Shown here: piece after piece, positions 2-14,522 of the stretch
Layout of the letters: each line of letters opens with the position of its first letter
Position numbering within the stretch: the first letter of the stretch is position 1
Assembly: GCA_963718645.1 (NCBI GenBank)
Contig: OY970373.1
Coordinates: 5,802,452-5,866,451 of the forward strand
Length of the DNA: 64,000 nt
Direction of reading: 5' to 3'
DNA from: an uncultured Acidobacteriota bacterium
Lineage (GTDB): Bacteria > Acidobacteriota > Thermoanaerobaculia > Multivoradales > UBA5704
The notes under the pieces: generated by a model
The model's database searches: none
What the model saw: the letters and a program-made list of their open reading frames with translations, nothing else
What the model was told of the DNA's origin: nothing
Program-made: the position numbers and the translations under genes

Positions 2-247
2 TACGCCGCCGTGCGCACGGCGGCCCAGCGGATCGAGACCAGCCGCACGCTCCTGCAGAGCGCCGAGGAGTCCGAGCAGGCGACCTCGGAGCGCTACCGC
101 GCCGGCGTCGGCAGCATCCTCGATCTGCTGACCGCGCAGAGCACGCTCGCCTCCGCTCGCGCTCAAGAGGTCCAGGCGCGCGCCGACTGGCTCCAGTCCC
201 TGGCCCAGCTCGCGCACGACACCGGCAACCTGAAAGGCCAGCCATGA
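2..247 (+). CDS. Outer membrane efflux protein (TolC-like outer-membrane factor), C-terminal fragment; start lies upstream of the window
   Basis: ORF runs in from the window edge. C-terminal coiled-coil/alpha-hairpin sequence typical of outer-membrane factor (OMF) family proteins. Stop overlaps the start of the adaptor gene (ATGA at 244). Confidence 0.6.
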   Translation, partial: YAAVRTAAQRIETSRTLLQSAEESEQATSERYRAGVGSILDLLTAQSTLASARAQEVQARADWLQSLAQLAHDTGNLKGQP

Positions 248-1392
248 AACATCGCGTCCGCCTCCTCGCCTGCGGTCTCACCGCCCTCCTCGCCGCCTGC
301 TCCGGCGGCAAGGCCGACAGCCCGGCCGGTAAAGAAGGGAAGGGGAAGGCCCAGCCGGCGGTGCCGGTGACGACCGGCGTGGTGGCGTCCAAGACCGTGC
401 CGGTGGAGCTGGAGGCGGTCGGCAAGGTGGAGCCGCTGTCGACCGTCTCCGTGCTGGCGCGCGTCGGCGGCGAGCTCACCGGTGTCCGCTTCGCCGAGGG
501 GCAGGAGGTGCAGAAGGGGCAGATCCTGTTCACGATCGATTCCCGTCCCTATCAGGCCGCCCTCGACCAGGCCCAGGCCGCCGTGGCCCGCGACAAGGCG
601 GTCGCCGCCAACTCGGCCGCCGACCTCAAGCGCTACGGCGACCTGGTGCAGAAGGAGTACGTCACCCGCGAGCAGTACGACCGCATCGCCGCCGACACCG
701 CCTCGTCCGGCGCCACCGTCAAGGCCGACGAGGCGGCGGTCGAGGCGGCCCGCCTGCAACTGGAGTACTGCACCATCCGCGCGCCCCTCACCGGCCGCAC
801 CGGCAGCCTGCTGGTGCACGCCGGCAACCTGGTCAAGGCCAACGACGCGCAGCCGCTGGTAGTGATCCACCAGATCCAGCCGATCTACGTCACCTTCGCC
901 GTCCCCGAGGGGGAGCTGGCAGGCATCGAGAGATACCGGCGCGAGGGCCATCTCACCGTCGAGTCGGTCCCCTCCGAAGGGAACGGCGCGAGCCAGGAAG
1001 GGACCTTGAGCTTCGTCGACAACCAGATCGACCGCACCACCGGCACCATCCTGCTCAAGGCGACCTTCCCCAACGCCGTCCGCTCGCTCTGGCCGGGGCA
1101 GTTCACCAAGGTGCGGCTCACCCTGGCGCGGCAGGCCAACGCCGTGGTGGTGCCGGCGCAGGCGGTGCAGACCGGCCAGAAGGGGCAGTACGTATATGTC
1201 GTGCGGCCGGACCAGACGGTCGAGGCCCGCGAGGTCCAGGTGGCGCGCACGGTGGCGGGCGAGGCGGTGGTCGCCGCCGGCCTGATGCCCGGCGAGACGG
1301 TGGTCACCGACGGCCAGCTCCGCCTGGCGCCGGGCATGAAGATCCAGGCCAAGAACGGCGCGCCGGCGCCTGCGGTTGGAGGGCAGGCATGA
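244..1392 (+). CDS. RND efflux periplasmic adaptor (membrane fusion protein, AcrA/MexA family)
   Basis: Lipoprotein-type N-terminus (LLACGLTALLAAC). Conserved membrane-fusion-protein core (biotinyl/lipoyl hairpin motifs, 'RAPLTGRTG'). Translationally coupled to the upstream OMF and the downstream RND pump. Confidence 0.85.
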   Translation: MKHRVRLLACGLTALLAACSGGKADSPAGKEGKGKAQPAVPVTTGVVASKTVPVELEAVGKVEPLSTVSVLARVGGELTGVRFAEGQEVQKGQILFTIDSRPYQAALDQAQAAVARDKAVAANSAADLKRYGDLVQKEYVTREQYDRIAADTASSGATVKADEAAVEAARLQLEYCTIRAPLTGRTGSLLVHAGNLVKANDAQPLVVIHQIQPIYVTFAVPEGELAGIERYRREGHLTVESVPSEGNGASQEGTLSFVDNQIDRTTGTILLKATFPNAVRSLWPGQFTKVRLTLARQANAVVVPAQAVQTGQKGQYVYVVRPDQTVEAREVQVARTVAGEAVVAAGLMPGETVVTDGQLRLAPGMKIQAKNGAPAPAVGGQA

Positions 1393-4300
1393 ATCTCTCG
1401 GCGCTGTTCATCCGCCGGCCGATCATGACCACGCTAGTGATGAGCGGCATCCTGCTGTTCGGCATCATGGGCTACCGGCTGCTGCCGGTCTCCGACCTGC
1501 CGAACGTCGATTTCCCGACCATCCAGGTGCAGGCGGCGCTGCCGGGGGCCAGCCCGGAGACCATGGCCTCGGCGGTCGCCACCCCCCTGGAGAAGCAGTT
1601 CACGACCATCGCCGGCCTGGACTCGATGATCTCGAACAACATCCAGGGGAACACCCAGATCACGCTGCAGTTCAACCTCAACCGCAACCTCGACTCGGCC
1701 GCCCAGGACGTGCAGTCGGCGATCGCCGCCGCCTCCCGACAGTTGCCGCCGGACATGCCGACGCCGCCGTCCTATCAGAAGGTGAACCCGGCGTCGCAGG
1801 CGATCCTCTACCTCACCCTGACCTCCGAGACGCTGCCGCTGTCGACCATCGACGAATATGGCGAGACCCTGATGGCGCAGCGGATCTCGACGGTCTCGGG
1901 CGTCGCCCAGGTGCAGGTCAACGGCGCCCAGAAGTACGCCGTGCGGGTGCAGCTCGATCCCCAGGCCATGGCCTCCTCCGGCCTCGGCGTCGACCAGGTG
2001 GCGACCGCCGTCCAGGGGGCCAACGTCGACCTCCCCACCGGCACCCTCTACGGCGCGCACCAGGCGTTCACCGTGCAGACCAACGGCCAGCTCACCGACG
2101 CCGCCGCCTACCGGCCGCTGATCGTCACCTACAAGAACGGCTCGCCGGCGCGCCTGCAGGACCTCGGGCGGGTGATCGACAGCGTCGAGAACGACAAGAC
2201 CGCGGCCTGGTTCAACAACCAGCGCGGCGTCATTCTCTCCGTGCAGCGCCAGCCCGGGACCAACACCGTGGCGGTAACCGAGGCGATCAAGAAGCTCCTG
2301 CCGACGTTCCGCCAGCAGCTCCCGGCGGCGATCCACCTCGACGTCCTGTTCGACCGCTCGGAATCGATCCGCGACTCGGTGAACGACGTCAAGTTCACCC
2401 TGCTGCTGACCCTGTTCCTGGTCGTGATGGTGATCTTCCTCTTCCTCCGCAACCTGTCGGCGACGGTGATCCCCAGCCTGGCGCTGCCGATGTCGATCGT
2501 CGGCACGTTCGCCGTGATGTACCTGCTCGACTACAGCCTCGACAACCTGTCGCTGCTCGCCCTGACGCTCTCGGTGGGCTTCGTGGTGGACGACGCCATC
2601 GTGATGCTGGAGAACATCGTCCGCCACATGGAGATGGGGGAGTCGGCCTGGGACGCGGCGCTCAACGGCAGCCGGGAGATCGGCTTCACCATCCTGTCGA
2701 TGACGATCTCGCTGGCCGCCGTCTTCATTCCGCTCCTGTTCATGGGCGGCATCCTGGGCCGTCTGTTCCGCGAGTTCTCGGTCACCATCGGCATCTCGGT
2801 GCTGGTCTCCGGCTTCGTCTCGCTGACGCTGACGCCGATGCTCTGCAGCCGCTTCCTGCGCCCGCCGCACGAGCAGCGGCACGGCCGTTTCTACAACGCC
2901 ATCGAGGGTGCTTTCGACCGCTCGCTGAAGCTCTACGAGGTCGGCCTGCGCTGGTCGCTCCGCCACCGCCTGGCCCTGGCGCTCGGCTCGCTCGGCGTGC
3001 TCGCCGCCACCGGCTGGCTGTTCGTGCAGATCCCGAAGGGGTTCATCCCCGACGAGGACACCGGCCAGATGATCATCTTCACCGAGGCCGTCCAGGGGGT
3101 CTCCTTCGAGGCGCTCGCCGTCCACCAGCAGCAACTGTCCAGGATCCTGGAACAGGACAAGAACGTGGCGGCGTTCATGTCCTCGATCGGCTCGCGCGGC
3201 AGCAGCACCGGCCCCAACAACGGCCTCTTCTTCATGCGCCTGAAGCCGCGCTCCGAACGGCCGCCGGCCAAGGCGGTGATCGAGGAGCTCCGGCCGAAGC
3301 TCTCGGTCGTGCCGGGCATCCGCGCCTTCCTCCAGATCCCGCCCACGATTCGCATCGGCGGCCGGCTGACCAAGAGCCAGTACCAGTACACGCTCCAGGG
3401 GTCGGATATCGGCGAGCTCTACCGCGACGCCCCCCTGCTGGAGGCGAAGATGCGCACCCTGCCCGGCCTGCGCGACGTCACCTCCGACCTCCAGATCACC
3501 AACCCGCAGGTGCAGGTGGACATCGACCGCGACAAGGCGGCGCAGCTCGGGGTGAGCATGCGCGCCATCGAGGACGCGCTCTACTACGCCTACGGCTCGC
3601 GCCAGGTGTCGACCATCTACTCGCCCAACAACCAGTACCAGGTGATCCTGGAGCTCGAGCCGCAGTACCAGCGCGATCCCACGGCGCTCGGGCTGCTCTA
3701 CGTCCATTCGGACAGCGGCACGCTGGTGCCGCTGTCGGCCCTGGCGCGGCTGACCGCCGGCGTCGGCCCGCTGGCGGTCACCCACTCCGGGCAGCTCCCC
3801 TCGGTCACCATCTCCTTCGACCTCGAGCCGGGCACCTCCCTGTCGCAGGGGGTCGCGGCCGTCGATCGCGCCGCCCGCGCGCTCCTGCCGCCGACGATCA
3901 GCACCAGCTTCCAGGGGACGGCGCAGGCCTTCCAGTCGTCGCTTCAGGGGCTCGGGCTGCTGCTGGTGATGGCGATCCTGGTGATCTACCTCGTCCTCGG
4001 CATCCTCTACGAGAGCTTCATCCACCCGCTGACCATCCTCTCGGCGCTGCCGTTCGCCGGCTTCGGCGCCCTGGTGACGCTGATGCTCTTCCACACCGAG
4101 CTTTCGATGTACGCTTTCGTCGGCATCATCCTGCTGGTCGGCCTGGTGAAGAAGAACGGCATCATGATGGTCGACTTCGCGATCGAGGCGCAGAGGGACA
4201 AGGGGCTGACGCCGGCCGAGGCGATCTACGAGGCCTCGGTGGTGCGCTTCCGTCCCATCATGATGACCACCATGGCGGCGCTGATGGGCACCCTGCCGAT

Positions 4301-4538
4301 CGCTCTGGGCTTAGGCGCCGGCGCCGAGTCGCGCCGGCCGCTGGGCCTCGCGGTGGTCGGCGGGTTGCTGTTCTCGCAGCTCCTGACGCTGTTCGTGACG
4401 CCCGTCTTCTACGTCTACATGGACGGGCTCCAGGGGTGGTTGTCGCGGACCTTCCGCCGCTCGCGCCGGCCAGCGCCGGGAGAGGGGGAACGGATCGTGC
4501 TTCCTGATTCAGGCTTGAGTGCGCGAGCGAAAATGTAA
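1389..4538 (+). CDS. RND multidrug efflux transporter permease (AcrB/MexB family)
   Basis: 1049 aa. N-terminus 'MNLSALFIRRPIMTTLVMSGILLFG' and 12-TM two-large-loop architecture characteristic of the AcrB hydrophobe/amphiphile efflux-1 (HAE1) family. Confidence 0.9.
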   Translation: MNLSALFIRRPIMTTLVMSGILLFGIMGYRLLPVSDLPNVDFPTIQVQAALPGASPETMASAVATPLEKQFTTIAGLDSMISNNIQGNTQITLQFNLNRNLDSAAQDVQSAIAAASRQLPPDMPTPPSYQKVNPASQAILYLTLTSETLPLSTIDEYGETLMAQRISTVSGVAQVQVNGAQKYAVRVQLDPQAMASSGLGVDQVATAVQGANVDLPTGTLYGAHQAFTVQTNGQLTDAAAYRPLIVTYKNGSPARLQDLGRVIDSVENDKTAAWFNNQRGVILSVQRQPGTNTVAVTEAIKKLLPTFRQQLPAAIHLDVLFDRSESIRDSVNDVKFTLLLTLFLVVMVIFLFLRNLSATVIPSLALPMSIVGTFAVMYLLDYSLDNLSLLALTLSVGFVVDDAIVMLENIVRHMEMGESAWDAALNGSREIGFTILSMTISLAAVFIPLLFMGGILGRLFREFSVTIGISVLVSGFVSLTLTPMLCSRFLRPPHEQRHGRFYNAIEGAFDRSLKLYEVGLRWSLRHRLALALGSLGVLAATGWLFVQIPKGFIPDEDTGQMIIFTEAVQGVSFEALAVHQQQLSRILEQDKNVAAFMSSIGSRGSSTGPNNGLFFMRLKPRSERPPAKAVIEELRPKLSVVPGIRAFLQIPPTIRIGGRLTKSQYQYTLQGSDIGELYRDAPLLEAKMRTLPGLRDVTSDLQITNPQVQVDIDRDKAAQLGVSMRAIEDALYYAYGSRQVSTIYSPNNQYQVILELEPQYQRDPTALGLLYVHSDSGTLVPLSALARLTAGVGPLAVTHSGQLPSVTISFDLEPGTSLSQGVAAVDRAARALLPPTISTSFQGTAQAFQSSLQGLGLLLVMAILVIYLVLGILYESFIHPLTILSALPFAGFGALVTLMLFHTELSMYAFVGIILLVGLVKKNGIMMVDFAIEAQRDKGLTPAEAIYEASVVRFRPIMMTTMAALMGTLPIALGLGAGAESRRPLGLAVVGGLLFSQLLTLFVTPVFYVYMDGLQGWLSRTFRRSRRPAPGEGERIVLPDSGLSARAKM

Positions 4539-4609
4539 GGCATGTAAAAAATAGGGAGGGAGCGCGCGATCCGGGAAACTCTTCCCGGACCTCTGCGTTC
4601 TGAGGTGCC

Positions 4610-6154
4610 ATGGACCCACTCGAGAACAATCACAAGCAGCGCCGGTTCCTCATCATCGCGATCGTCGTGGTGGTGGGAGTCCTGGTCGCTCTGTTCTTCC
4701 TCCGGCGCGGCAAGGGCAAGGGCGGCGATCAGTACCGCACCGAAGCGGTCAGCCAGGGGAACATCTCCGCCACCGTGAACGCCACGGGGACCCTGTCGGC
4801 CGTCACCACAGTCCAGGTCGGCAGCCAGGTCTCCGGCATCATCTCCAAGCTCTACGCCGACTTCAACAGCCAGGTGAAGAAGGGGCAGCTCCTCGCCGAG
4901 CTCGACCCGACCCCCTTCCAGCAGACGGTGGAACAGCGCCAGGCCGACGTCACCAAGGCGCAGGTCGACGTCGCCAACACCCTGCTCACCTATAACCGCC
5001 AGAAGCGGCTAGCCGCCGTCGGCCTGATCGCGCAGTCCGACCTCGACGCGGCCAAGGCCGCCTACGACGGCGCGCGTGCCGGGCTCGCCCAGTCCCAGGC
5101 GGCCCTGAAGCAGGCGCAGACCAACCTCAACTACGCCAAGATCTACTCGCCGATCGACGGCCAGGTGGTCGCCCGCCAGTACGACATCGGCCAGACCGTC
5201 GCCGCCTCGTTCTCGGCCCCCACCCTGTTCACTATCGCCAAAGACCTGACCAAGATGCAGGTCCAGGCCGACGTCGACCAGTCGGACATCGGCCAGATGA
5301 GCGTTGGCGAGCCCGTGCAGTTCACGGTCGACGCCTACCCCGACCAGCCCTTCCGGGGCCAGATCTCGCAGGTGCGCCTGAACGCCACGGTCACCCAGAA
5401 CGTCATCACCTACCCGGTGATCGTCGAGGTGCCGAACCCCGACCTGAAGCTGCGCCCGAGCATGACGGCCAACGTCGTGATCCGCGTCGCCACCGTCCGC
5501 GACGTGCTGCGCGTGCCCAACTCCGCCCTGCGCTTCCGGCCGGCGACGCCGGAGGGCAAGACGGCGGACGGCAAGACGGCGGATACCAGGACCGCGAACG
5601 GCAAGCCGGCCGCCTCCTCCGACGCGCAGCCCGCCACCAGCGAGGCGGCCGCTCAAGCCCCCGGCCGGCCCGCCGGCACGACCTCCGGGATGACCTCCGA
5701 CCAGCAGGCCGGGATGACCTCCGATCAGCAGCCCGGACAGCACCGCCATCGCTTCGGCGGCCAGGCTGGCGGCCAGGCCCCTGGGCAGGCCGGCCAGGTC
5801 GCCGCGTCGGACGGCGGCGCTGGGAGTGCCGGCCAGGGCGGTGCCCAGGGCGGCGGCCAGCACTTCGGCCAGGGGGGCCAGGGGCGCGGCGGTCGGCGGC
5901 AGCAGGGGCAGACCGTCTACGTCCTGAACCCGGAGGACAACAACGACAAGACGCCTGCGATGCGTGCGGTGCAGATCCGCACCGGCATCACCGACGGCCA
6001 CTACACGCAGGTGCTGGCGGTGATCTCCGGCACGCTGAACCCGGGCGATCCGGTGATCACCGGCCTCGCCACGGTCAAGGTCGAGGCCCCCGCCGGCGCC
6101 AACCGTCCTCCGGGTGCGGGCGGCGGCGGCCAGCGCGGCCTGGGGCGGTTCTGA
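4610..6154 (+). CDS. HlyD/MacA-type periplasmic adaptor subunit with Gly/Gln-rich low-complexity C-terminal extension
   Basis: N-terminal TM anchor, coiled-coil and barrel-sandwich hybrid motifs of the MacA/HlyD family. C-terminal ~180 aa are low complexity (TSDQQAGMTSDQQPG repeats, GGQ runs). Followed by MacB-like ATPase and permease. Confidence 0.8.
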   Translation: MDPLENNHKQRRFLIIAIVVVVGVLVALFFLRRGKGKGGDQYRTEAVSQGNISATVNATGTLSAVTTVQVGSQVSGIISKLYADFNSQVKKGQLLAELDPTPFQQTVEQRQADVTKAQVDVANTLLTYNRQKRLAAVGLIAQSDLDAAKAAYDGARAGLAQSQAALKQAQTNLNYAKIYSPIDGQVVARQYDIGQTVAASFSAPTLFTIAKDLTKMQVQADVDQSDIGQMSVGEPVQFTVDAYPDQPFRGQISQVRLNATVTQNVITYPVIVEVPNPDLKLRPSMTANVVIRVATVRDVLRVPNSALRFRPATPEGKTADGKTADTRTANGKPAASSDAQPATSEAAAQAPGRPAGTTSGMTSDQQAGMTSDQQPGQHRHRFGGQAGGQAPGQAGQVAASDGGAGSAGQGGAQGGGQHFGQGGQGRGGRRQQGQTVYVLNPEDNNDKTPAMRAVQIRTGITDGHYTQVLAVISGTLNPGDPVITGLATVKVEAPAGANRPPGAGGGGQRGLGRF

Positions 6155-6156
6155 GC

Positions 6157-6959
<803 letters not shown>

Positions 6960-6963
<4 letters not shown>

Positions 6964-8189
6964 GAATCACGCTCCTGCGTCTCTGGAACATCACCAAAGT
7001 GGGACTGATGGCGATCTCGCGCAACAAGATGCGCTCGCTGCTCACCATGCTGGGGATCATCATCGGCGTCGCCTGCGTCATCACCATGGTGGCGGTGGGC
7101 ACCGGCGCCTCCAGCTCCATCCAGGCGACGATCAACTCGCTGGGCACCAACTTCATCATGCTGTTCCCCGGCGCCGCCAACACCGGCGGCGCGCGCATGT
7201 TCACCGACCAGTCGAAGATCACCCCGGAGGACGCCGACGCCATCAAGGCCGAGTGCCCGGCGGTCTCCTACGTCTCCCCCGGCGCCCGCACCAACGCGCA
7301 GGTGGTGGCGGGCGACGCCAACTGGGGAACGCAGGTCTGGGGCGTCGGCGTCGACTGGCCGTTCATCCGCGCCTGGAACGTGGCCGACGGCGACTTCTTC
7401 ACCGACGTCGACGTCCGCACCTCGACCCGCGTCTGCGTCCTCGGCGCCACGGTGGCCGAGAACCTCTTCCCTGCCGGCGACGCCGTGGGCTCCACCATCC
7501 GCATCAAGCACCTCCCCTTCCGGGTGGTCGGCGTGCTGGAGCGCAAGGGGGGCAACATGATGGGGCAGGACCAGGACGACCAGATCATCGCCCCCTACAC
7601 GACGGTGATGAAGCAGCTCCTGGGCTCGCCGCGGATCAGCATGATCTACATCTCGGCCCGCACCGCCGCCGAGGTGCAGGAGGCGCAGAACCAGATCGAC
7701 GCACTGATGCGCCAGCGCCACCGCACCCCGCCCGGCCAGGAGAGCGACATCAACATGCGCTCGCAGGAGGAGATCGCCTCGACCTCCGAGCAGACCTCGA
7801 AGACCCTCTCGATCCTGCTCGGCTCGGCCGCCGCCATCTCGCTGCTGGTCGGCGGGATCGGCATCATGAACATCATGCTGGTCTCGGTCACCGAGCGCAC
7901 CCGCGAGATCGGCGTCCGCCTGGCGATCGGCGCCAAGGGGCGGCACGTGCTGCTGCAGTTCCTGCTGGAGGCCATTGCGCTCTCGGTGGTTGGTGGGGCG
8001 ATCGGCGTCGGCCTGGGTCTCCTCGCGCCCGTCCTGGTGACCCGCTTCGCCGGCCTGCCCACCCAGGTGAGCTCGGGCTCCGTGCTCCTCGCCTTCGGCT
8101 TCGCCGGCGCCATCGGCGTCTTCTTCGGCTTCTACCCGGCCCGCAAGGCCTCGCGGCTCGATCCGATCGACGCGCTACGCTACGAGTAG
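6960..8189 (+). CDS. ABC transporter permease (MacB-like, FtsX domain)
   Basis: N-terminal TM plus large periplasmic domain, then a C-terminal FtsX-type 3-TM bundle ending '...RLDPIDALRYE'. Overlaps the ATPase gene by 4 nt. Confidence 0.85.
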
Positions 8190-8201
8190 GCTCCGCCGCG
8201 T

Positions 8202-9545
8202 TTGACGGCGGCCGGGAGCGCGGTTAGAGTCCTCTCGAACCGCGCTCTACAAGCCGCCGATCTCATGCCTGCGCCCGTGCCCACCCGTACCGACCCGGTC
8301 CGCGTCGCGCGCTGGGGGCTGTTCGTCCTCACCTTCGTCAACCTGTTCAACTATCTTGACCGCAACGTCGTCGCGGCGCTGCTCCAGGATCTGAAGGCCG
8401 ATCTTCATCTCACCGACGTCCAACTGGGATGGCTCGGGACCGGATTCGTCCTGGTCTACATGCTGACCTCGCCCGTCTTCGGCACACTCGGCGACCGGGG
8501 GAAGCGCCCGCGGCTGATCGCGGTCGGGGTGGCGATCTGGAGCGTGGCGACCGCCCTGGGCGGCTTTGCGCGAGGCTTCGTCAGCCTGTTCATCGCTCGC
8601 TCGACCGTGGGGGTGGGCGAGGCGGCCTACGGATCGGTGTCGCCGGCGCTGCTCGCCGATTACTTCCCGGTCGAAAAGCGGGGACGGGTGTTCGCCGTCT
8701 TCTCGGCCGCCATCCCGATCGGTTCGGCCGCAGGCTACATGCTGGGCGGGTTCGTAGCTGGCCACTGGGGCTGGCGCGCGGCCTTTTTCGTGGCCGGCGT
8801 GCCTGGCCTTCTGCTCGCCTGGCTCACCGCCCGCCTGATCGATCCGCCACGCGGCGCCCAGGACGGTGGCTCGACGGTGGAGGCGACAGGGCACGGCGTG
8901 ACGCTGGGCAGGCAGGCGCTCGCCGCCTACACCGGGCTGCTGCGCAACGGCCCCTACGTCCTGACCGTCCTCGGCTACGCCGCCTACACCTTCGCCCTCG
9001 GCGCGCTGGCCTTCTGGACGCCGACCTTCCTGGAGCGCGAGCGCGGCTTGCCGCAAGCGGACGCCACGGTGCAGTTCGGAGCCATCGTCGTGGTCACCGG
9101 CTTCGTCGGCACCTTCCTGGGGGGGTGGCTCGGCGACAAGCTGCTCCCCCGTTTCCGCGAGTCCTATCTCTGGGTCTCGGGAGTCAGCGCGCTGGCCGCC
9201 GTGCCGTTCGCCTGGCTGGTCTTCACCGCCCACGACCGTTGGCTCTACACGACGGCCATGGTGATCGCCGAGACGCTGATCTTCGTCTCCACCGGCCCGG
9301 TGAACTCGGCGATCGTCAACGTCGTCGAGCCGGAGCGGCGGGCGACGGCGGTGGCGCTGTCGATCCTCGCCATCCACCTGCTGGGGGACGTCCCCTCGCC
9401 GCCGCTGATCGGCCTCGTCTCCGACCACTCCTCGCTCGGCCGCGCCCTGCTGATCCTGCCGGTCGCCTTCGGCGTCAGCGGCCTGATCTGGATGTTCGCG
9501 GCCTGGCGGGGCGGGCGGACCCTCACCCCCGGCGCCTCTAGCTGA
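8202..9545 (+). CDS. MFS transporter
   Basis: 12 predicted TM segments. MFS signature-like 'GTLGDRGKRPRL' in loop 2-3. Confidence 0.75.
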   Translation: MTAAGSAVRVLSNRALQAADLMPAPVPTRTDPVRVARWGLFVLTFVNLFNYLDRNVVAALLQDLKADLHLTDVQLGWLGTGFVLVYMLTSPVFGTLGDRGKRPRLIAVGVAIWSVATALGGFARGFVSLFIARSTVGVGEAAYGSVSPALLADYFPVEKRGRVFAVFSAAIPIGSAAGYMLGGFVAGHWGWRAAFFVAGVPGLLLAWLTARLIDPPRGAQDGGSTVEATGHGVTLGRQALAAYTGLLRNGPYVLTVLGYAAYTFALGALAFWTPTFLERERGLPQADATVQFGAIVVVTGFVGTFLGGWLGDKLLPRFRESYLWVSGVSALAAVPFAWLVFTAHDRWLYTTAMVIAETLIFVSTGPVNSAIVNVVEPERRATAVALSILAIHLLGDVPSPPLIGLVSDHSSLGRALLILPVAFGVSGLIWMFAAWRGGRTLTPGASS

Positions 9546-10140
9546 GCCACTTCGCGAAGGCGTCCGGGTGGATGCTCCAGCCCAGGAAGCCGGCGAGCCC
9601 CATCACCACGCCGAAGGTGGCGAAGACGATCGACACCCCCACCAGCCACTTCTTGCGGGTCAGCGCGCTGACGCCCAGCAGGGCGATCGAGATACTGATC
9701 GCCGCCTCCGACATGTCGAACTGGTCGTCGTGCACGTTGAGGCGGTCGTACTCCGCCTGGGCCCCCTCGGCCTCGCGCTTGATGTCCGCCTTCTCCTTCT
9801 CATACTTCTTCACCGTCGCGTCGTAGGTGACGATCTCCTTGGCCACCAGGGCCGCCGCCTGCGGGGTCAGGCCCCCCTCCTGCTGGCGGAGCCGGAGCTG
9901 GTCGCCCACGCTCTCGGCGAGGTTCTGCTTCATCCCCTTCGCCTGGTAATACGACCACTGGTCGACCGCCTTGGCCTGCTCCTGGGACATCGCCTGCACG
10001 ATGTTGCCATCCTTGATGTTGCACAGCGCCATGACGGTGGCGAGGATCGCCACCAGCACGGCGATCAGGTTGTTCAGCCCGTCGTGCGATTTCTCGCCGC
10101 CTTCGACGATCTCGGAAATGGTCTCTTGAATGTCGCTCAT
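9538..10140 (-). CDS. Hypothetical membrane protein (DUF4337-like)
   Basis: 200 aa with two TM helices flanking a Lys/Glu-rich coiled segment. High GC3 coding signal on the minus strand. Confidence 0.55.
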   Translation of the reverse strand: MSDIQETISEIVEGGEKSHDGLNNLIAVLVAILATVMALCNIKDGNIVQAMSQEQAKAVDQWSYYQAKGMKQNLAESVGDQLRLRQQEGGLTPQAAALVAKEIVTYDATVKKYEKEKADIKREAEGAQAEYDRLNVHDDQFDMSEAAISISIALLGVSALTRKKWLVGVSIVFATFGVVMGLAGFLGWSIHPDAFAKWLS

Positions 10141-10238
10141 GGCGCAACGTTAGCCAGCTCCATGCCCCCCGTCAACGGGCAGAGGCCTGTCCCCGTCCTC
10201 CGGCCGGCGCGCACTAGCCTTGTAGGGAGGAGCGACGT

Positions 10239-11270
10239 TTGATCCTGATCCTCAGCCAGTCTTCATTGGAGCCCACGACCGAGGAGGTCATGGACTGGCT
10301 GTGGGCGCTCGGCGGCTCCTGCGTGCGCCTCAACGGCGACGACATCGAGGGTCGCTGCGCCCTCCGCTTCGAGATCGACGGCGCGGAGGCCTCCCTGGTC
10401 TTCACCTCCGACGACGGCGAGCTGCCGCTCTTGGAGGTCGGCGCCGTCTGGTTCCGCCGCTGGATCTTCGAGCGGCGCCACGAGTCCGTGGATCTGCTGG
10501 CGCGCCCGGCGGCGGACAACCACACGCTCCACTACGAGCTCCGGCGCCACCTCAACCTGGAGTCCCGGCGGCTCAGCGACTTCCTCTATTCGAGCCTCGC
10601 CGGCCGCCCCTGGCTCAGCCACCCCCGGCGCTCGAACCTCAACAAGCTCGACGTCCTCCAGCGCGCCGCCCGCGCCGGCCTCGCCACGCCGGCCACCCTG
10701 GTCACCACCGAGCGCGAGGCGCTCCGCCGCTTCTGCGTGGAGCGCGGGCCGGTGATCACCAAGCCGATCGGCGAGGTCGACGCCTTCCTCGACGGCGAGG
10801 TCGCGCACTACCTGTACACCACCGCTCTCGGCCTCGCGGAGATCGACGCGCTCCCCGCCCGCTTCGCCCCCTCGCTGTTTCAGGAGCAGGTGGAGAAGGC
10901 CTACGAGGTGCGGGTCTTCCACCTCGCCGGCGAGCTCCACGCGATGGCCATCTTCTCTCAGAACGACGACCAGACCCGGGTCGATTTCCGCCAGTACAAC
11001 CGGCAGCGGCCGAACCGCAACGTGCCCTACCGCCTCCCCGCGGAGACCGCCGCCGCCCTCCTCCGCCTGATGGCCGACCTCGACCTCGAGACCGGCTCGA
11101 TCGACCTGCTGGTGCGGCCGGACGGCGGCGAGGTCTTCCTGGAGGTCAATCCGGTCGGGCAGTTCGGAATGGTGTCGAAACCGTGCAACTACCCCCTGGA
11201 GCGGAAGGTCGCGGAGCTGCTCCTCCGCAAGGCCGATTCCGAGAAGAGCCATGATGAAAGACGACCCTGA
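10239..11270 (+). CDS. ATP-grasp ribosomal peptide maturase (grasp-with-spasm / RimK-like family)
   Basis: TTG start preceded by GGGAGG RBS. ATP-grasp fold motifs ('VITKPIGEV', 'EVRVFHLAGELHAMAI', 'GSIDLLVRPDGGEVFLEVNPVGQFG'). Sits in an operon with a SPASM protein and a small precursor gene. Confidence 0.8.
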   Translation: MILILSQSSLEPTTEEVMDWLWALGGSCVRLNGDDIEGRCALRFEIDGAEASLVFTSDDGELPLLEVGAVWFRRWIFERRHESVDLLARPAADNHTLHYELRRHLNLESRRLSDFLYSSLAGRPWLSHPRRSNLNKLDVLQRAARAGLATPATLVTTEREALRRFCVERGPVITKPIGEVDAFLDGEVAHYLYTTALGLAEIDALPARFAPSLFQEQVEKAYEVRVFHLAGELHAMAIFSQNDDQTRVDFRQYNRQRPNRNVPYRLPAETAAALLRLMADLDLETGSIDLLVRPDGGEVFLEVNPVGQFGMVSKPCNYPLERKVAELLLRKADSEKSHDERRP

Positions 11271-11463
11271 AGAGATCTTCGCGCGCCTCTCGCTCGAGGG
11301 GCAGGAGCTGGCGCCGGTGATCTACCGCCACCTGCACCCGCGGGCCAACCGCGCGACGGTCCTGCGGCTCGTCGAGTGCCGCCCCTACCGCGCCACGGGC
11401 TACATCTGTGGGAGCTTCCGCAAGCCGATCTCGAAGTGCTGCGGGCCCGATGAGGAACCTTAA
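11251..11463 (+). CDS. Small hypothetical protein (70 aa) inside the RiPP operon
   Basis: Very high GC3 codon bias consistent with real coding. Overlaps the end of the ATP-grasp gene and the start of the SPASM gene. Cys-rich C-terminus (CGSFRKPISKCCGP). Confidence 0.4.
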   Translation: MMKDDPEEIFARLSLEGQELAPVIYRHLHPRANRATVLRLVECRPYRATGYICGSFRKPISKCCGPDEEP

Positions 11464-12520
11464 GGCCGTCTTCTCCCTCTTCGCCTGCTGCCTGCCGGTG
11501 AAGGGAGCGCGCCGCAGCCTCGTCTGCGACCTCCAGCGGCAATCGTTCCAGTTCATCCCCAACGGCCTCTACGAGATCCTGACCGAGCACGCCGGCGAGA
11601 CGGTGGACCAGATCAAGGCGGCCTACGAGCACGAGTACGACACGGAGATCGACGAGTACTTCGCCTTCCTCCTGCACCACGAATTCGGCTTCTGGTGCGG
11701 CCACCCCCAGCGCTTCCCGCCGATCGACCTGACCTGGGAGGCGCCGGAGCGGATCACCAACGCCATCCTCGACCTCGACGAGCGGTCCGACCACGACATC
11801 CCGAAGATCCTCGCCGAGCTCGACGACCTCGGCTGCAAGGCGCTGGAGGTCCGCTGCTTCCACGCCACCCCACTATGCGAGCTGCGCGCACTCCTGGAGG
11901 CGGCCCTCCAGAGCCGGCTGCGCTCGATCGACCTGCTGGCCGGCTTCACCCCCGAGCTCACTCCTGAAGTGCTCGCGAGCCTGGTCGCCGAGCACCGCCG
12001 GGTGAGCAGCGTGGTGGTCCACTCGGCGCCGGCGAACCGGCGGCTCCCGCCGACCCAGACCGGCGTCACGATGGAATTTCGCGCCGAGGTGATCGGCTCT
12101 CCCGCCTGCTGCGGCAAGATCCACCCCGGGTACTTCGTGGTCGACCTGGAGACCTTCGCCGAGGGGCTGCGGCACAACACCTGCCTGAACCGCAAGATCT
12201 CGGTCGACGCCCGCGGGGAGATCCGCAACTGCCCGTCGCTGCCGCGGTCGTTCGGCAACGCGCGCCAGGTGTCGCTGCACAGCGCGCTGGCGCACCGCGA
12301 CTTCGCCGCCCTCTGGTCGATCAACAAGGACCAGATCGACATCTGCAAGGACTGCGAGTTCCGCTACGTCTGCACCGACTGCCGCGCTTATCTCCAGAGC
12401 CCGTCGGACCTCTATTCGAAGCCCTCCAAGTGCGGCTACGACCCCTATACCGCCGAGTGGCGTTCCTCGGCGGAACCGCCGGCCGCGCTGGCCGGCATCA
12501 CGAAAGGAGTTTTCCCATGA
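11450..12520 (+). CDS. SPASM-domain peptide maturase lacking the radical-SAM CxxxCxxC triad (grasp-with-spasm type)
   Basis: C-terminal SPASM cysteine clusters (CCGKIH...; CPSLPRSF...; CKDCEFRYVCTDCRAY; CGYDP). No canonical CxxxCxxC in the N-terminal barrel region. Stop overlaps the precursor start (ATGA). Start may be the annotated 11408 or the internal ATG at 11450. Confidence 0.7.
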   Translation: MRNLKAVFSLFACCLPVKGARRSLVCDLQRQSFQFIPNGLYEILTEHAGETVDQIKAAYEHEYDTEIDEYFAFLLHHEFGFWCGHPQRFPPIDLTWEAPERITNAILDLDERSDHDIPKILAELDDLGCKALEVRCFHATPLCELRALLEAALQSRLRSIDLLAGFTPELTPEVLASLVAEHRRVSSVVVHSAPANRRLPPTQTGVTMEFRAEVIGSPACCGKIHPGYFVVDLETFAEGLRHNTCLNRKISVDARGEIRNCPSLPRSFGNARQVSLHSALAHRDFAALWSINKDQIDICKDCEFRYVCTDCRAYLQSPSDLYSKPSKCGYDPYTAEWRSSAEPPAALAGITKGVFP

Positions 12521-12678
12521 AGAAGAAGATGGAAAGCCTCGGCGACAAGCTGTTCCGCCCGCTGACGGCCACCGAGCAGAAGCGGATTACGGCCGCCATC
12601 ACCACCACCACGGCGGTGACGCTCTATGAGACCGCCAACCCCAACCCCGACACCCAGCGCGACGGCGACCACGAGTAG
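12517..12678 (+). CDS. Putative RiPP precursor peptide (53 aa), ATP-grasp/SPASM target
   Basis: ATG at 12517 with AAGGAG RBS 9 nt upstream. Sequence MKKKMESLGDKLFRPLTATEQKRITAAITTTTAVTLYETANPNPDTQRDGDHE. The Thr/Glu/Asp-rich C-terminal core is suited to omega-ester/amide crosslinking. Immediately followed by a GC hairpin plus T-run terminator. Confidence 0.65.
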   Translation: MKKKMESLGDKLFRPLTATEQKRITAAITTTTAVTLYETANPNPDTQRDGDHE

Positions 12679-12689
12679 GCCGTCTCCTC

Positions 12690-12727
12690 GAGGAGGGGAG
12701 GAGGCTTGCCTCCCTCCCTCCCTTTTT
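12690..12727 (+). terminator. Rho-independent terminator of the RiPP operon
   Basis: ggaggggaggaggcttgcctccctccctccc followed by ttttt. Confidence 0.6.
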
Positions 12728-12912
12728 CGCGAGAGCTTTCAAAGAATCGGGCCCCTTTCTTTGAAAGCCCTCCGAGCTTTGCAAGCTCACTTTCAAAGCT
12801 TCCCGAGCTTTTAAAGAAACAGGCCATTTTCTTTGAAAGCCTCCCGAGCTTTGCAAGTCCTCTTTCAAAGTTTCCCGAGCTTTGAAAGAATCAGGCCGAT
12901 TCCTTTCAAAGC
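12728..12912. repeat. About 2.5 tandem copies of a ~72-bp unit containing 8 copies of the 9-bp palindrome CTTT(C/G)AAAG
   Basis: Read directly: gagctttcaaag...ctttgaaag...gagctttgcaag...ctttcaaag, repeated. Lies between the RiPP terminator and the Fic gene start. Confidence 0.8.
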
Positions 12913-12929: not shown

Positions 12930-14069
12930 GTGAACCCCGCCGACTTCCATTCTCCCAGCGCCGGACGCGTCGTCCAGGCTCCAGGAGGGTTCGCGGCCTT
13001 CATTCCCGCGCCGCTGCCTCCCGAGCTGGCGTATCCCCCTTCGCTGGTCCTCGCGCTCTCGCGGGCCGACGCCGCCTTGAGCGAGCTGTCGGGGCTCGGC
13101 CGCCAGCTCCCCAATCCCAACCTGCTGATCGCGCCCTACGTCCGTCGCGAGGCGGTGCTCTCCTCGCGGATCGAAGGCACCCGCGCCAGCCTCTCGGACG
13201 TTCTCCTGGACGAGGCCGAGACGGACCGCTCCCAGGATGCCGACGTGCGCGAGGTGCGGAACTACGTGGAGGCGCTGGAGCACGGCCTGGAGCGCCTGCG
13301 GGAGCTGCCGCTCTCGCTGCGCCTCGTCCGCGAGCTGCACGAGCGGCTGATGCAGGGAGTGCGGGGCGACCAGGCCACGCCGGGGGAGTTCCGCCGCTCG
13401 CAGAACTGGATCGGCCCGGCGGGGAGCACGCCGGCGACCGCACCCTACGTGCCGCCGCCGCCCGACGCGATGATGGACTGCCTCGCCGACTGGGAGGGCT
13501 TCCTCCACGACCGCGACCGCCTCCCCGACCTGATCCAGTGCGCCCTGATGCACGAGCAGTTCGAGGCGATCCACCCGTTCCTGGACGGCAATGGCCGCGT
13601 GGGCAGGCTGCTGATCACGCTCTTCCTGGTCGAGCGCGGCCGTCTCCCTCAGCCCCTGCTCTACCTCTCGGACTTCATCGAGAGCCACCGGCAGGACTAT
13701 TACGACTGTCTCCAGAGCGTGCGGACGGAGGGCGACTGGCCCGGCTGGCTCCACTTCTTCCTCGCCGGCGTGGAGGCGACCGCGCGCTCGGCCGTCCGCC
13801 AGGCGAGCCGCCTGATGGACCTGCGCGAGTCCTACCGGCGGCGCCTGAGCCAGCGCCCCAACGCCCTCCGGCTGGTGGACGAGCTGTTCGCGAACCCCTA
13901 CCTCACCGCCGGCAGGGCGGCACGGGTCCTGGGCGTCACCGACCCCACGGCCCGGCAGGCCATCGCTCGCCTCCAAACGGAGGGCCTGCTCGAAGAGGTG
14001 ACCGGCCGGAGCTGGGGACGGATCTATCTGGCGCGGCCGATTTTGGAGGCGATCGAGGATCGGGGGTGA
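12930..14069 (+). CDS. Fic family protein (Fic/DOC AMPylase-type, C-terminal wHTH)
   Basis: Canonical Fic motif HPFLDGNGRVGRLL. GTG start. Confidence 0.85.
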   Translation: MNPADFHSPSAGRVVQAPGGFAAFIPAPLPPELAYPPSLVLALSRADAALSELSGLGRQLPNPNLLIAPYVRREAVLSSRIEGTRASLSDVLLDEAETDRSQDADVREVRNYVEALEHGLERLRELPLSLRLVRELHERLMQGVRGDQATPGEFRRSQNWIGPAGSTPATAPYVPPPPDAMMDCLADWEGFLHDRDRLPDLIQCALMHEQFEAIHPFLDGNGRVGRLLITLFLVERGRLPQPLLYLSDFIESHRQDYYDCLQSVRTEGDWPGWLHFFLAGVEATARSAVRQASRLMDLRESYRRRLSQRPNALRLVDELFANPYLTAGRAARVLGVTDPTARQAIARLQTEGLLEEVTGRSWGRIYLARPILEAIEDRG

Positions 14070-14118: not shown

Positions 14119-14343
14119 ATGACGATCGCGGACCTGGAATCCAAGATTCTCGAGCTGGACCCGAAGGAACGAGCGCGCCTGGCTCAACGGCTCCTCGAAA
14201 GCCTGGAGGCGCTCTCCGAAGCTGAAGTCGAGGCACTCTGGCTGAGAGAAGCCGATCATCGGGACCAACAGCTCGACCAGGACCCCTCTCGCGCCATCCC
14301 CGGCGCCGACGTCCTGCGCGAGGCGCGTTCCCTGCTCTCGTGA
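14119..14343 (+). CDS. Putative addiction-module antitoxin component (TIGR02574-like)
   Basis: MTIADLESKILELDPKERARLAQRLLESL... is typical of this antitoxin family. Overlaps the downstream ParE-like gene by 4 nt. Confidence 0.6.
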   Translation: MTIADLESKILELDPKERARLAQRLLESLEALSEAEVEALWLREADHRDQQLDQDPSRAIPGADVLREARSLLS

Positions 14344-14522
14344 GCTTGACCTACTCCTTTGCTCCCGAAGCTCGATTCGAGCTTCTTGAGTCGATCCAAT
14401 ACTACGAATCCGAGAGTCCCGGGCTCGGCTCTGCCTTTCTCTCCTCCGTGAACGAGGGGATCGAGCAACTCCTTGCCTTCCCTGGTCTTCGCGTCGCCTT
14501 TCAATCCGGCTCCGCGTCCTGA
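14340..14522 (+). pseudogene. RelE/ParE-family toxin, C-terminally truncated (~60 of ~95 aa)
   Basis: N-terminal half matches ParE (MSLTYSFAPEARFELLESIQYYESESPGLGSAFLSSVNEGIEQLLAFPG). It then diverges and stops. The conserved C-terminal RxxxxY/H region is missing. Confidence 0.5.

Follow-up and report, generated by a model that had tools for sequence, protein, structure and literature searches.

A putative self-contained grasp-with-spasm cassette with a conserved small third component in a Thermoanaerobaculia-like acidobacterium

We analysed a stretch of 64,000 nucleotides (the window) from contig OY970373.1 of assembly GCA_963718645.1, which belongs to a Thermoanaerobaculia-like acidobacterium, and focused on a four-gene operon of the grasp-with-spasm (gws) type, a class of systems for peptides made by the ribosome and modified after translation (RiPPs). 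An earlier note on this DNA had proposed four coupled genes on the forward strand at 10239-12727, and reading of the open reading frames (ORFs) confirmed them there. The first, gwsG, encodes an ATP-grasp peptide maturase of 343 amino acids (10239, with a TTG start, to 11270). It is followed on the same strand by the gene of a small partner protein of the LPL family (11251-11463, 70 amino acids), by gwsS, encoding a SPASM-domain maturase of 356 amino acids (11450, with an ATG start, to 12520), and by the gene of a 53-residue precursor peptide (12517-12678).

Shine-Dalgarno sequences are strong for the first and last genes: GGGAGGAG, read from the sequence at 10225..10232 (+), lies 6 nt upstream of the gwsG TTG, and AAAGGAG at 12503..12509 (+), within the end of gwsS, lies 7 nt upstream of the precursor ATG. 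Neither of the two internal genes has one, and they overlap their predecessors by 20 nt (17 nt counted from the second ATG) and 14 nt, respectively, an arrangement that fits translational coupling. Four-nucleotide ATGA overlaps had been described at two junctions. The one between gwsS and the precursor gene is present, but the one between the grasp gene and the small ORF is not, as the gwsG frame passes through ATGATGA (11251-11257) and stops only at the TGA at 11268-11270. Downstream of the operon, a G+C-rich hairpin (GGAGGGGAGGAGG / CCTCCCTCCCTCC, then TTTTT; about 12689..12727, +) was found by pattern scan and RNA folding, starting 10 nt after the precursor stop codon. As the terminator claimed in the earlier note, it is supported only by its place 3' of the precursor gene: the folding energy (-28.4 kcal/mol; z -0.8) is not above what composition predicts, and the scan returned 2 terminator-like sites against 1.5 expected. 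A scan for sigma-70-type promoters gave no site, and Rfam models matched the operon and the sequence 3' of it only by chance, below threshold. The G+C content of the operon (0.67-0.72) is the same as that of the surrounding DNA.

The assignment to the grasp-with-spasm type holds for both enzymes, which score above the equivalog cut-offs of the corresponding NCBIfam models. GwsG matches TIGR04192 (grasp-with-spasm system ATP-grasp peptide maturase) with 274.8 bits against a cut-off of 230, confirming that it is an ATP-grasp enzyme of the peptide-maturase type. Its residues 2-328 align to profile positions 1-318; since profile position 1 falls on residue 2, the TTG at 10239 is the correct start. 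Weaker matches were obtained to the MvdC, MvdD and SAV_5884 maturases, similarity to TIGR04184, TIGR04185 and TIGR04187 has E-values of 1e-40 to 1e-43, and the MvdD pre-ATP-grasp domain (PF21068) was detected with 34.5 bits (cut-off 27). The locus thus combines the two features of a graspetide system, an MvdD-like ATP-grasp enzyme and a leader-core precursor with conserved Thr and Asp/Glu residues.

Systems of this kind are widely distributed. More than 2,154 homologues of the SPASM protein were found, and the close ones, in Thermoanaerobaculia and Acidobacteria MAGs, bear the grasp-with-spasm name. Scanning for the pattern in genomes, one for each species, gave at least 587 loci with a GwsS relative, the best 80 of which were examined. 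These 80 belong to Acidobacteriota (Thermoanaerobaculia, Blastocatellia, Pyrinomonadaceae and Acanthopleuribacteraceae), Gemmatimonadota (Longimicrobiaceae), Myxococcaceae and many Bacteroidota; the nearest genomes are metagenome-assembled Thermoanaerobaculia or other Acidobacteriota, with 77-80% identity in the SPASM protein. Of the 74 loci whose upstream DNA is long enough to judge, 72 have the grasp gene directly 5' of the SPASM gene, ending 150-430 nt before it. The window shares this arrangement, with grasp, small and SPASM genes in that order on one strand and the LPL-family gene directly before gwsS. The order of all four genes is conserved in dozens of genomes and, judged by this comparison, they are far beyond chance. 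The flanks behave differently: the upstream series FtsX-MFS-DUF4337 (the last on the reverse strand) and the downstream Fic gene are syntenic only in the closest relatives (loci L001-L009 and L020), and other genes flank L081, L082 and the more distant loci. As the flanks are conserved only among the closest relatives, the functional unit consists of the four genes. Shadow ORFs, arising in DNA of high G+C content, made the clustering of flank ORFs noisy. The idea that the flanks hold conserved accessory genes was rejected, the pattern being phylogenetic synteny in the closest relatives only.

GwsS matches TIGR04193 with 325.6 bits against a cut-off of 175, its residues 7-339 aligning to positions 1-334 of the 342 in the profile. 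The earlier note had described a SPASM protein devoid of the radical S-adenosylmethionine (SAM) triad CxxxCxxC, and had named an alternative start as the place where one might be found. The motif is absent from GwsS even when translation is extended to an upstream GTG at 11408, as well as from all 120 database homologues and all 70 genomic relatives (0 of 190 overall). The SPASM cysteines themselves are retained, in the pattern C221, C245-x15-C261 with G256, C299-xx-C302-x5-C308-xx-C311 and C328, each kept in 69-70 of the 70 relatives; these eight would suffice as the complete ligand set of two auxiliary [4Fe-4S] clusters. The polar residues D108, R135, E238, N243 and K249, at the top of the barrel and the start of the SPASM domain, are equally conserved (69-70 of 70) across several phyla at about 40% overall identity. 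Three further cysteines outside the SPASM region are also kept across phyla: C14 (67 of 70), C26 (65 of 70) and C129 (67 of 70), encoded on the forward strand by codons 11489-11491, 11525-11527 and 11834-11836. GwsS has no Pfam match at E ≤ 0.1, Radical_SAM included, and a profile of 76 sequences retrieved nothing from the PDB sequences at E ≤ 1. Given that the triad, the Pfam match and the PDB match are all absent, GwsS cannot be classed with the radical SAM enzymes. Nor did ORFs of at least 150 amino acids in the window contain a plausible CxxxCxxC of a radical SAM partner, the single match being in a Pro/Arg-rich alternate-frame ORF.

The AlphaFold2 (AF2) model of GwsS, built with 76 homologues, has a predicted local distance difference test score (pLDDT) of 82.6, and Foldseek aligns the whole of it to the sactisynthase CteB (E = 1.2e-6). 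CteB consists of a RiPP recognition element (RRE), a radical SAM domain and a SPASM domain. The same parts are predicted in GwsS, namely a winged-helix RRE at about residues 5-80, a shortened barrel of about four or five beta/alpha units at about 100-210 and the SPASM region at about 220-340, so that the model has the RRE, partial TIM barrel and SPASM fold of radical SAM/SPASM maturases. The term SPASM-only is therefore too narrow for this architecture, in which a predicted RRE and a truncated radical-SAM-like barrel are retained. Only seven residues (D-E-R-S-D-H-D) separate beta1 (104-109) from alpha1 (117-126), where CxxxCxxC resides in radical SAM enzymes; D108 is present in 70 of 70 relatives, and S113 is nearly invariant. 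Compared with CteB, SuiB and PqqE, GwsS is thus alike in modelled fold but lacks the triad and has a very short beta1-alpha1 loop. According to the AF2 secondary structure, C14 and C26 lie on RRE-like strands, and C129 in the alpha1-beta2 loop, on the barrel face opposite the usual radical-SAM cluster. The SPASM region also shows a marginal match to the GeoRSP model TIGR04304 (E = 0.0068, 15.6 bits; cut-off 300), which NCBIfam likewise names a "SPASM domain protein" and not a radical SAM/SPASM protein. In the GeoRSP system, the SPASM protein has a distinct radical SAM protein as its partner, unlike in the present locus, where neither the cassette nor the window has a radical SAM gene.

The earlier note had mentioned a small ORF between the two enzyme genes. 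It is there, and, on sequence grounds, the 70-residue product is a member of the LPL family and a conserved third component of the system. Makarova et al. (2022, PMC8939145) reported that in Bacteroidetes branch 5 the LPL family is always found directly upstream of the SPASM gene, and guessed at a chaperone of the PqqD kind; the text of that paper mentions neither KPIS nor Acidobacteria. The protein carries the motifs LF.RLSPEG, L-A-P-V-I-Y (the LPL equivalent), ES.PYRA.GY.C and F-R-K-P-I-S-K-C, and the family-wide motifs are h-P-h-x-aromatic and a C-terminal [FY]xKPIS[KR], with P22, K58, P59 and S61 nearly invariant. A phmmer search found homologues directly 5' of the SPASM gene in about 30 loci, and an ORF with the KP[IV]S motif fills the grasp-SPASM gap in 71 of the 80 loci, in Acidobacteriota, Gemmatimonadota, Myxococcota and Bacteroidota. 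When a hidden Markov model (HMM) built from acidobacterial members only was run against 17,617 ORFs, the top 55 matches were all positioned before a SPASM gene, and they included the equivalent Bacteroidota ORFs of L040 (Chitinophaga; E = 1.3e-8), L035 (1.7e-6) and L030 (5e-6). No Pfam or NCBIfam model matches the protein, and all its homologues are annotated as "hypothetical protein". It is always single-copy and always between the grasp and SPASM genes, unlike the precursors, which vary from one to three copies. In at least six cases (database proteins P0059, P0062, P0066, P0067 and P0098, and locus L017) it forms one natural polypeptide with the SPASM protein, being joined in frame to the N-terminus of the latter by a low-complexity linker of 40-60 residues. 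Its two cysteines are conserved in the clade of the window and absent from most Bacteroidota homologues.

The precursor reads MKKKMESLGDKLFRPLTATEQKRITAA / ITTTTAVTLYETANPNPDTQRDGDHE. It belongs to a family of 29 distinct peptides of 49-58 amino acids, encoded directly 3' of the SPASM gene in the acidobacterial clade in one to three copies per locus, with the consensus mkKkMErl.d.LFrPLt.aeq.r..g...T.Ta.T..ET...p.p.D..rDGD.E. In many copies a GG or AG junction comes after the leader motif KKME.L.D.LF.PL (AA in the window). The core consists of a T.T..T..ET segment, a turn (often NP.P) and D..RDGD.E, reaching the C-terminus. T30, T32, T35, E38, T39, D45, R48, D49, G50, D51 and E53 are the conserved residues of the window peptide, and the core lacks conserved Lys or Cys. 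A homology between this leader and the N-terminus of the small protein (LFRPLT and LF.RLS) was considered and, with an hhalign probability of 0.6% (E = 0.1), rejected. The family is unmatched in Pfam and NCBIfam, and its members are all annotated as "hypothetical protein". TIGR04186, suggested in the earlier note as a model to search with, was never returned in any NCBIfam scan; we take it to be the actinobacterial GRASP_targ model. The precursor model of the system is TIGR04194 (grasp-with-spasm system A modified peptide), which left the window precursor unmatched at E ≤ 1 and hit 1 of 17 precursors of the clade, at E = 0.19 only. As precursors are hyper-diverse in the grasp-with-spasm system (Makarova 2022, PMC8939145), this mismatch does not exclude the locus from it.

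Several relatives hold additional peptides. In the close relatives L002, L003, L005-L011 and L020, the SPASM gene is followed by two or three precursor genes in tandem, which fall into two subtypes, one subtype of 52-54 amino acids with "TQTAVT..ETANPNPD" and another of 55-58 with "PPQTYTAIT..ETYDPAPD"; the window has the first type only. In L081, a relative at about 80% identity, an extra 56-residue peptide (6565-6735; MKKKTTTRRLILSTETLRNLNDPELGDAAGG/ATGALICTHSQGQATRCTICPGCTI) that combines a GG leader with a Cys-rich core is encoded 5' of gwsG, so some acidobacterial gws loci hold a second, Cys-containing precursor type that is not found in the window. L082 (2701-2895, 4020-5348 and 5763-6005) has a fused small-protein/SPASM gene, together with a GG-leader peptide 5' of gwsG that has a Thr/Asp core (…AVAGG/MVGYDTVYLTDTQHSDVAHNDPPAAE) and a weakly Nif11-like GG peptide downstream.

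Previous descriptions of these systems are bioinformatic or genomic in all the literature we searched, which bears out the view that their products are chemically uncharacterised. Branch 5, "grasp-with-spasm", is a purely bioinformatic class described as Bacteroidetes-specific (Makarova 2022, PMC8939145), the RODEO "group 14" is listed as always co-occurring with a SPASM protein (Carter 2026, PMC13097080), and gwsG and gwsS are cargo of Porphyromonas gingivalis integrative and conjugative elements (bioRxiv 10.64898/2026.08.04.741601). The Bacteroidota gws loci (TIGR04192/TIGR04193/TIGR04194) resemble the window in both enzymes, above the equivalog cut-offs, in the homologous LPL/KPIS protein between them, in the absence of CxxxCxxC and in having short precursors that start with MKK. 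They differ in several respects. The host of the window is a high-G+C acidobacterium; its precursor lies 3' of gwsS and escapes TIGR04194, whereas the P. gingivalis propeptide is upstream of gwsG; the precursor has the LFRPL leader motif and no conserved Cys; the small protein of its clade has two extra conserved Cys; and no C39/ABC exporter or HlyD gene is counted in the cassette, genes that, like that of the "cluster 23" lipoprotein, are typical accessories in Bacteroidota gws loci.

Thuringinin is a graspetide of the hairpin type, with the core TxxTxxT...ExxDxD. The window peptide resembles this type in having several Thr on one side of a turn and Asp/Glu on the other, together with an MvdD-like ATP-grasp enzyme, and differs in its ATP-grasp subfamily and in the two extra obligatory proteins. 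A graspetide synthetase that depends on a partner protein is known from rosaritide (MirB/MirC; Carter et al. 2026, PMC13097080), and there too the ATP-grasp gene is strictly accompanied by proteins, other than precursors, that activity may require. MirC is a different protein, PPIase-associated and without an Fe-S domain, and partner dependence in the gws system would be an analogy.

Taken together, we consider the locus to be a self-contained gws RiPP cassette in the order gwsG-LPL-gwsS-precursor, with the mechanism outlined here, at a probability of about 0.7. The 53-residue precursor would be recognised through its conserved leader (KKME.L.D.LFRPL), bound via the RRE of GwsS, with GwsS and the small protein acting as one functional unit. 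GwsG, with ATP, would acyl-phosphorylate the Asp/Glu side chains of E38, D45, D49, D51 and E53 and, by analogy with characterised MvdD-type ligases, close omega-ester macrolactones with T30, T32, T35 and T39. The staples would hold the product as a hairpin about its N-P-N-P turn, and as many as four 18-Da losses would result; since the conserved core has neither Lys nor Cys, we expect no lactams or thioethers. GwsS probably carries two fully Cys-ligated auxiliary [4Fe-4S] clusters and, for want of a SAM-binding cluster, cannot start canonical 5'-deoxyadenosyl radical chemistry. We favour a role for the GwsS unit as an obligate partner or tailoring module of GwsG that would present the substrate and perform a SAM-independent, probably redox, step. 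Because the cluster ligands and the polar patch are retained, a catalytic or redox role seems somewhat likelier than a purely structural one, although the reaction itself cannot be named from sequence.

Several points weigh against this reading. No chemical characterisation of any gws product was found in the literature searched, so every chemical step is deduced, and residue conservation is the sole basis of the guessed ring pattern. A single AF2 model underlies the assignment of RRE and barrel, with pLDDT of 63-96 over the N-terminal 80 residues, and neither region has a sequence match in Pfam or PDB. An AF2 model of the fusion P0066 had a mean pLDDT of 59, below 50 in the small domain, and its docking was uninformative. 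The reading leaves the cysteines C14, C26 and C129 without a role, and they could be ligands of a further metal centre. Finally, the cassette contains no peptidase or dedicated exporter, and no C39 or ABC-exporter gene adjoins it, leaving leader removal and export unaccounted for.

An unlikely but serious candidate is that GwsS and the small protein form a non-catalytic chaperone or scaffold in which the Fe-S sites are relics, the product bearing ATP-grasp cross-links only. GwsS has lost the cluster loop of radical SAM enzymes and has a shorter barrel, the predicted RRE could present the precursor leader to GwsG, and MirC, acting for rosaritide, offers a precedent for a partner-dependent graspetide synthetase (PMC13097080). 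Yet the near-invariance of the eight SPASM cysteines and of the five polar residues seems to exceed what a scaffold needs. The three additional cysteines invite the opposite idea, that GwsS is a radical SAM enzyme with a non-canonical, site-differentiated [4Fe-4S] cluster that binds SAM on C14, C26 and C129, comparable to enzymes in which the three Cys are widely spaced along the chain. There are exactly three of them family-wide, and the overall modelled fold is that of radical-SAM/SPASM maturases; we nevertheless judge this improbable, as the model places C14 and C26 on RRE-like strands and C129 on the opposite face of the barrel, the short beta1-alpha1 loop is acidic, and no Radical_SAM Pfam or PDB sequence match is found.

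The small protein could instead be a second precursor, with LF.RLS as its leader and a GY.C..FRKPISKC core modified by GwsS. It is small, lies within a RiPP operon, has two conserved Cys in the clade of the window and resembles the LFRPLT leader at its N-terminus. We hold this to be very unlikely: the leader resemblance is not significant by hhalign, the cysteines are missing from most Bacteroidota homologues in a family whose nearly invariant residues are the P and KPIS positions, and its single copy between the two enzyme genes and its fusions to the GwsS N-terminus in at least six genomes do not fit a precursor. The fusions, the single copy, the fixed position, the clade-specific Cys and the RRE of GwsS itself together make it more likely that the small protein is a subunit of GwsS; with a predicted RRE of its own, GwsS need not obtain one from the small protein. 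A bolder reading is doubtful, namely that GwsS and the KPIS protein constitute a new SAM-independent Fe-S peptide modifier descended from a sactisynthase-like RRE/radical-SAM/SPASM ancestor, or a radical enzyme with an unprecedented C14/C26/C129 site. In either case, a modification new to RiPPs would be placed on a hairpin peptide that is ester-stapled and free of Cys.

The locus comes as no surprise, as it belongs to a family that has a name and is already recognised by curated models and public annotation. Exact sequences of all four proteins are present in NCBI/ENA, and cluster mates of GwsG and GwsS at ≥90% identity are named grasp-with-spasm maturases by NCBI and JGI. Beyond that annotation, the analysis adds the KPIS-motif small protein as a universal, sometimes fused, third component, the predicted built-in leader-binding domain of GwsS and an unmodelled precursor family. 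What is specific to this locus is its phylum, its minimal four-gene layout and its unmodelled, Cys-free precursor family. Grasp-with-spasm systems are found widely (over 2,000 homologues of the SPASM protein; 587 loci or more), occur on mobile elements of an oral pathogen, and have neither a known product nor a known role for the SPASM protein in the literature searched. The acidobacterial version, with four genes, a single Cys-free precursor and no accessory enzymes, is about the simplest test case, and thus a good experimental entry to that question rather than a surprise in itself.

Upstream of the cassette, the forward strand holds a run of efflux genes encoding an HlyD-like protein (244-1392), an AcrB RND pump (1389-4538), a second HlyD-like protein (4610-6154), an ABC ATPase (6157-6963), a MacB/FtsX permease (6960-8189) and an MFS transporter (8202-9545). 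Between this run and gwsG lies the divergent DUF4337 gene (9538-10140, reverse strand). The MacAB-type pump could export a peptide, but the efflux genes (244-9545) are syntenic only in the closest relatives and were not counted in the cassette. On the 3' side, the first gene after the operon (12930-14069, +) encodes a Fic/DOC protein with Fic_N, Fic and DUF1612 domains and a weakly MarR-like C-terminus, and has syntenic counterparts in 8 relatives (83-91% identity). Next on the same strand come an "addiction module" antitoxin-like gene (PF09720; 14083-14343) and an overlapping ORF of 60 amino acids (14340-14522) with no family match, possibly a truncated toxin.

Between the terminator-like hairpin and the Fic gene lies a tandem repeat (12733-12912) of 2.5 copies of a 72-bp unit with 84% identity, a lower G+C content (about 0.58) and short palindromes (CTTTCAAAG / CTTTGAAAG). 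The repeat has no Rfam match. Its core 14-mer occurs 4 times against 0.07 expected, and is found in the same intergenic position in L002, L003, L006-L009 and L020.

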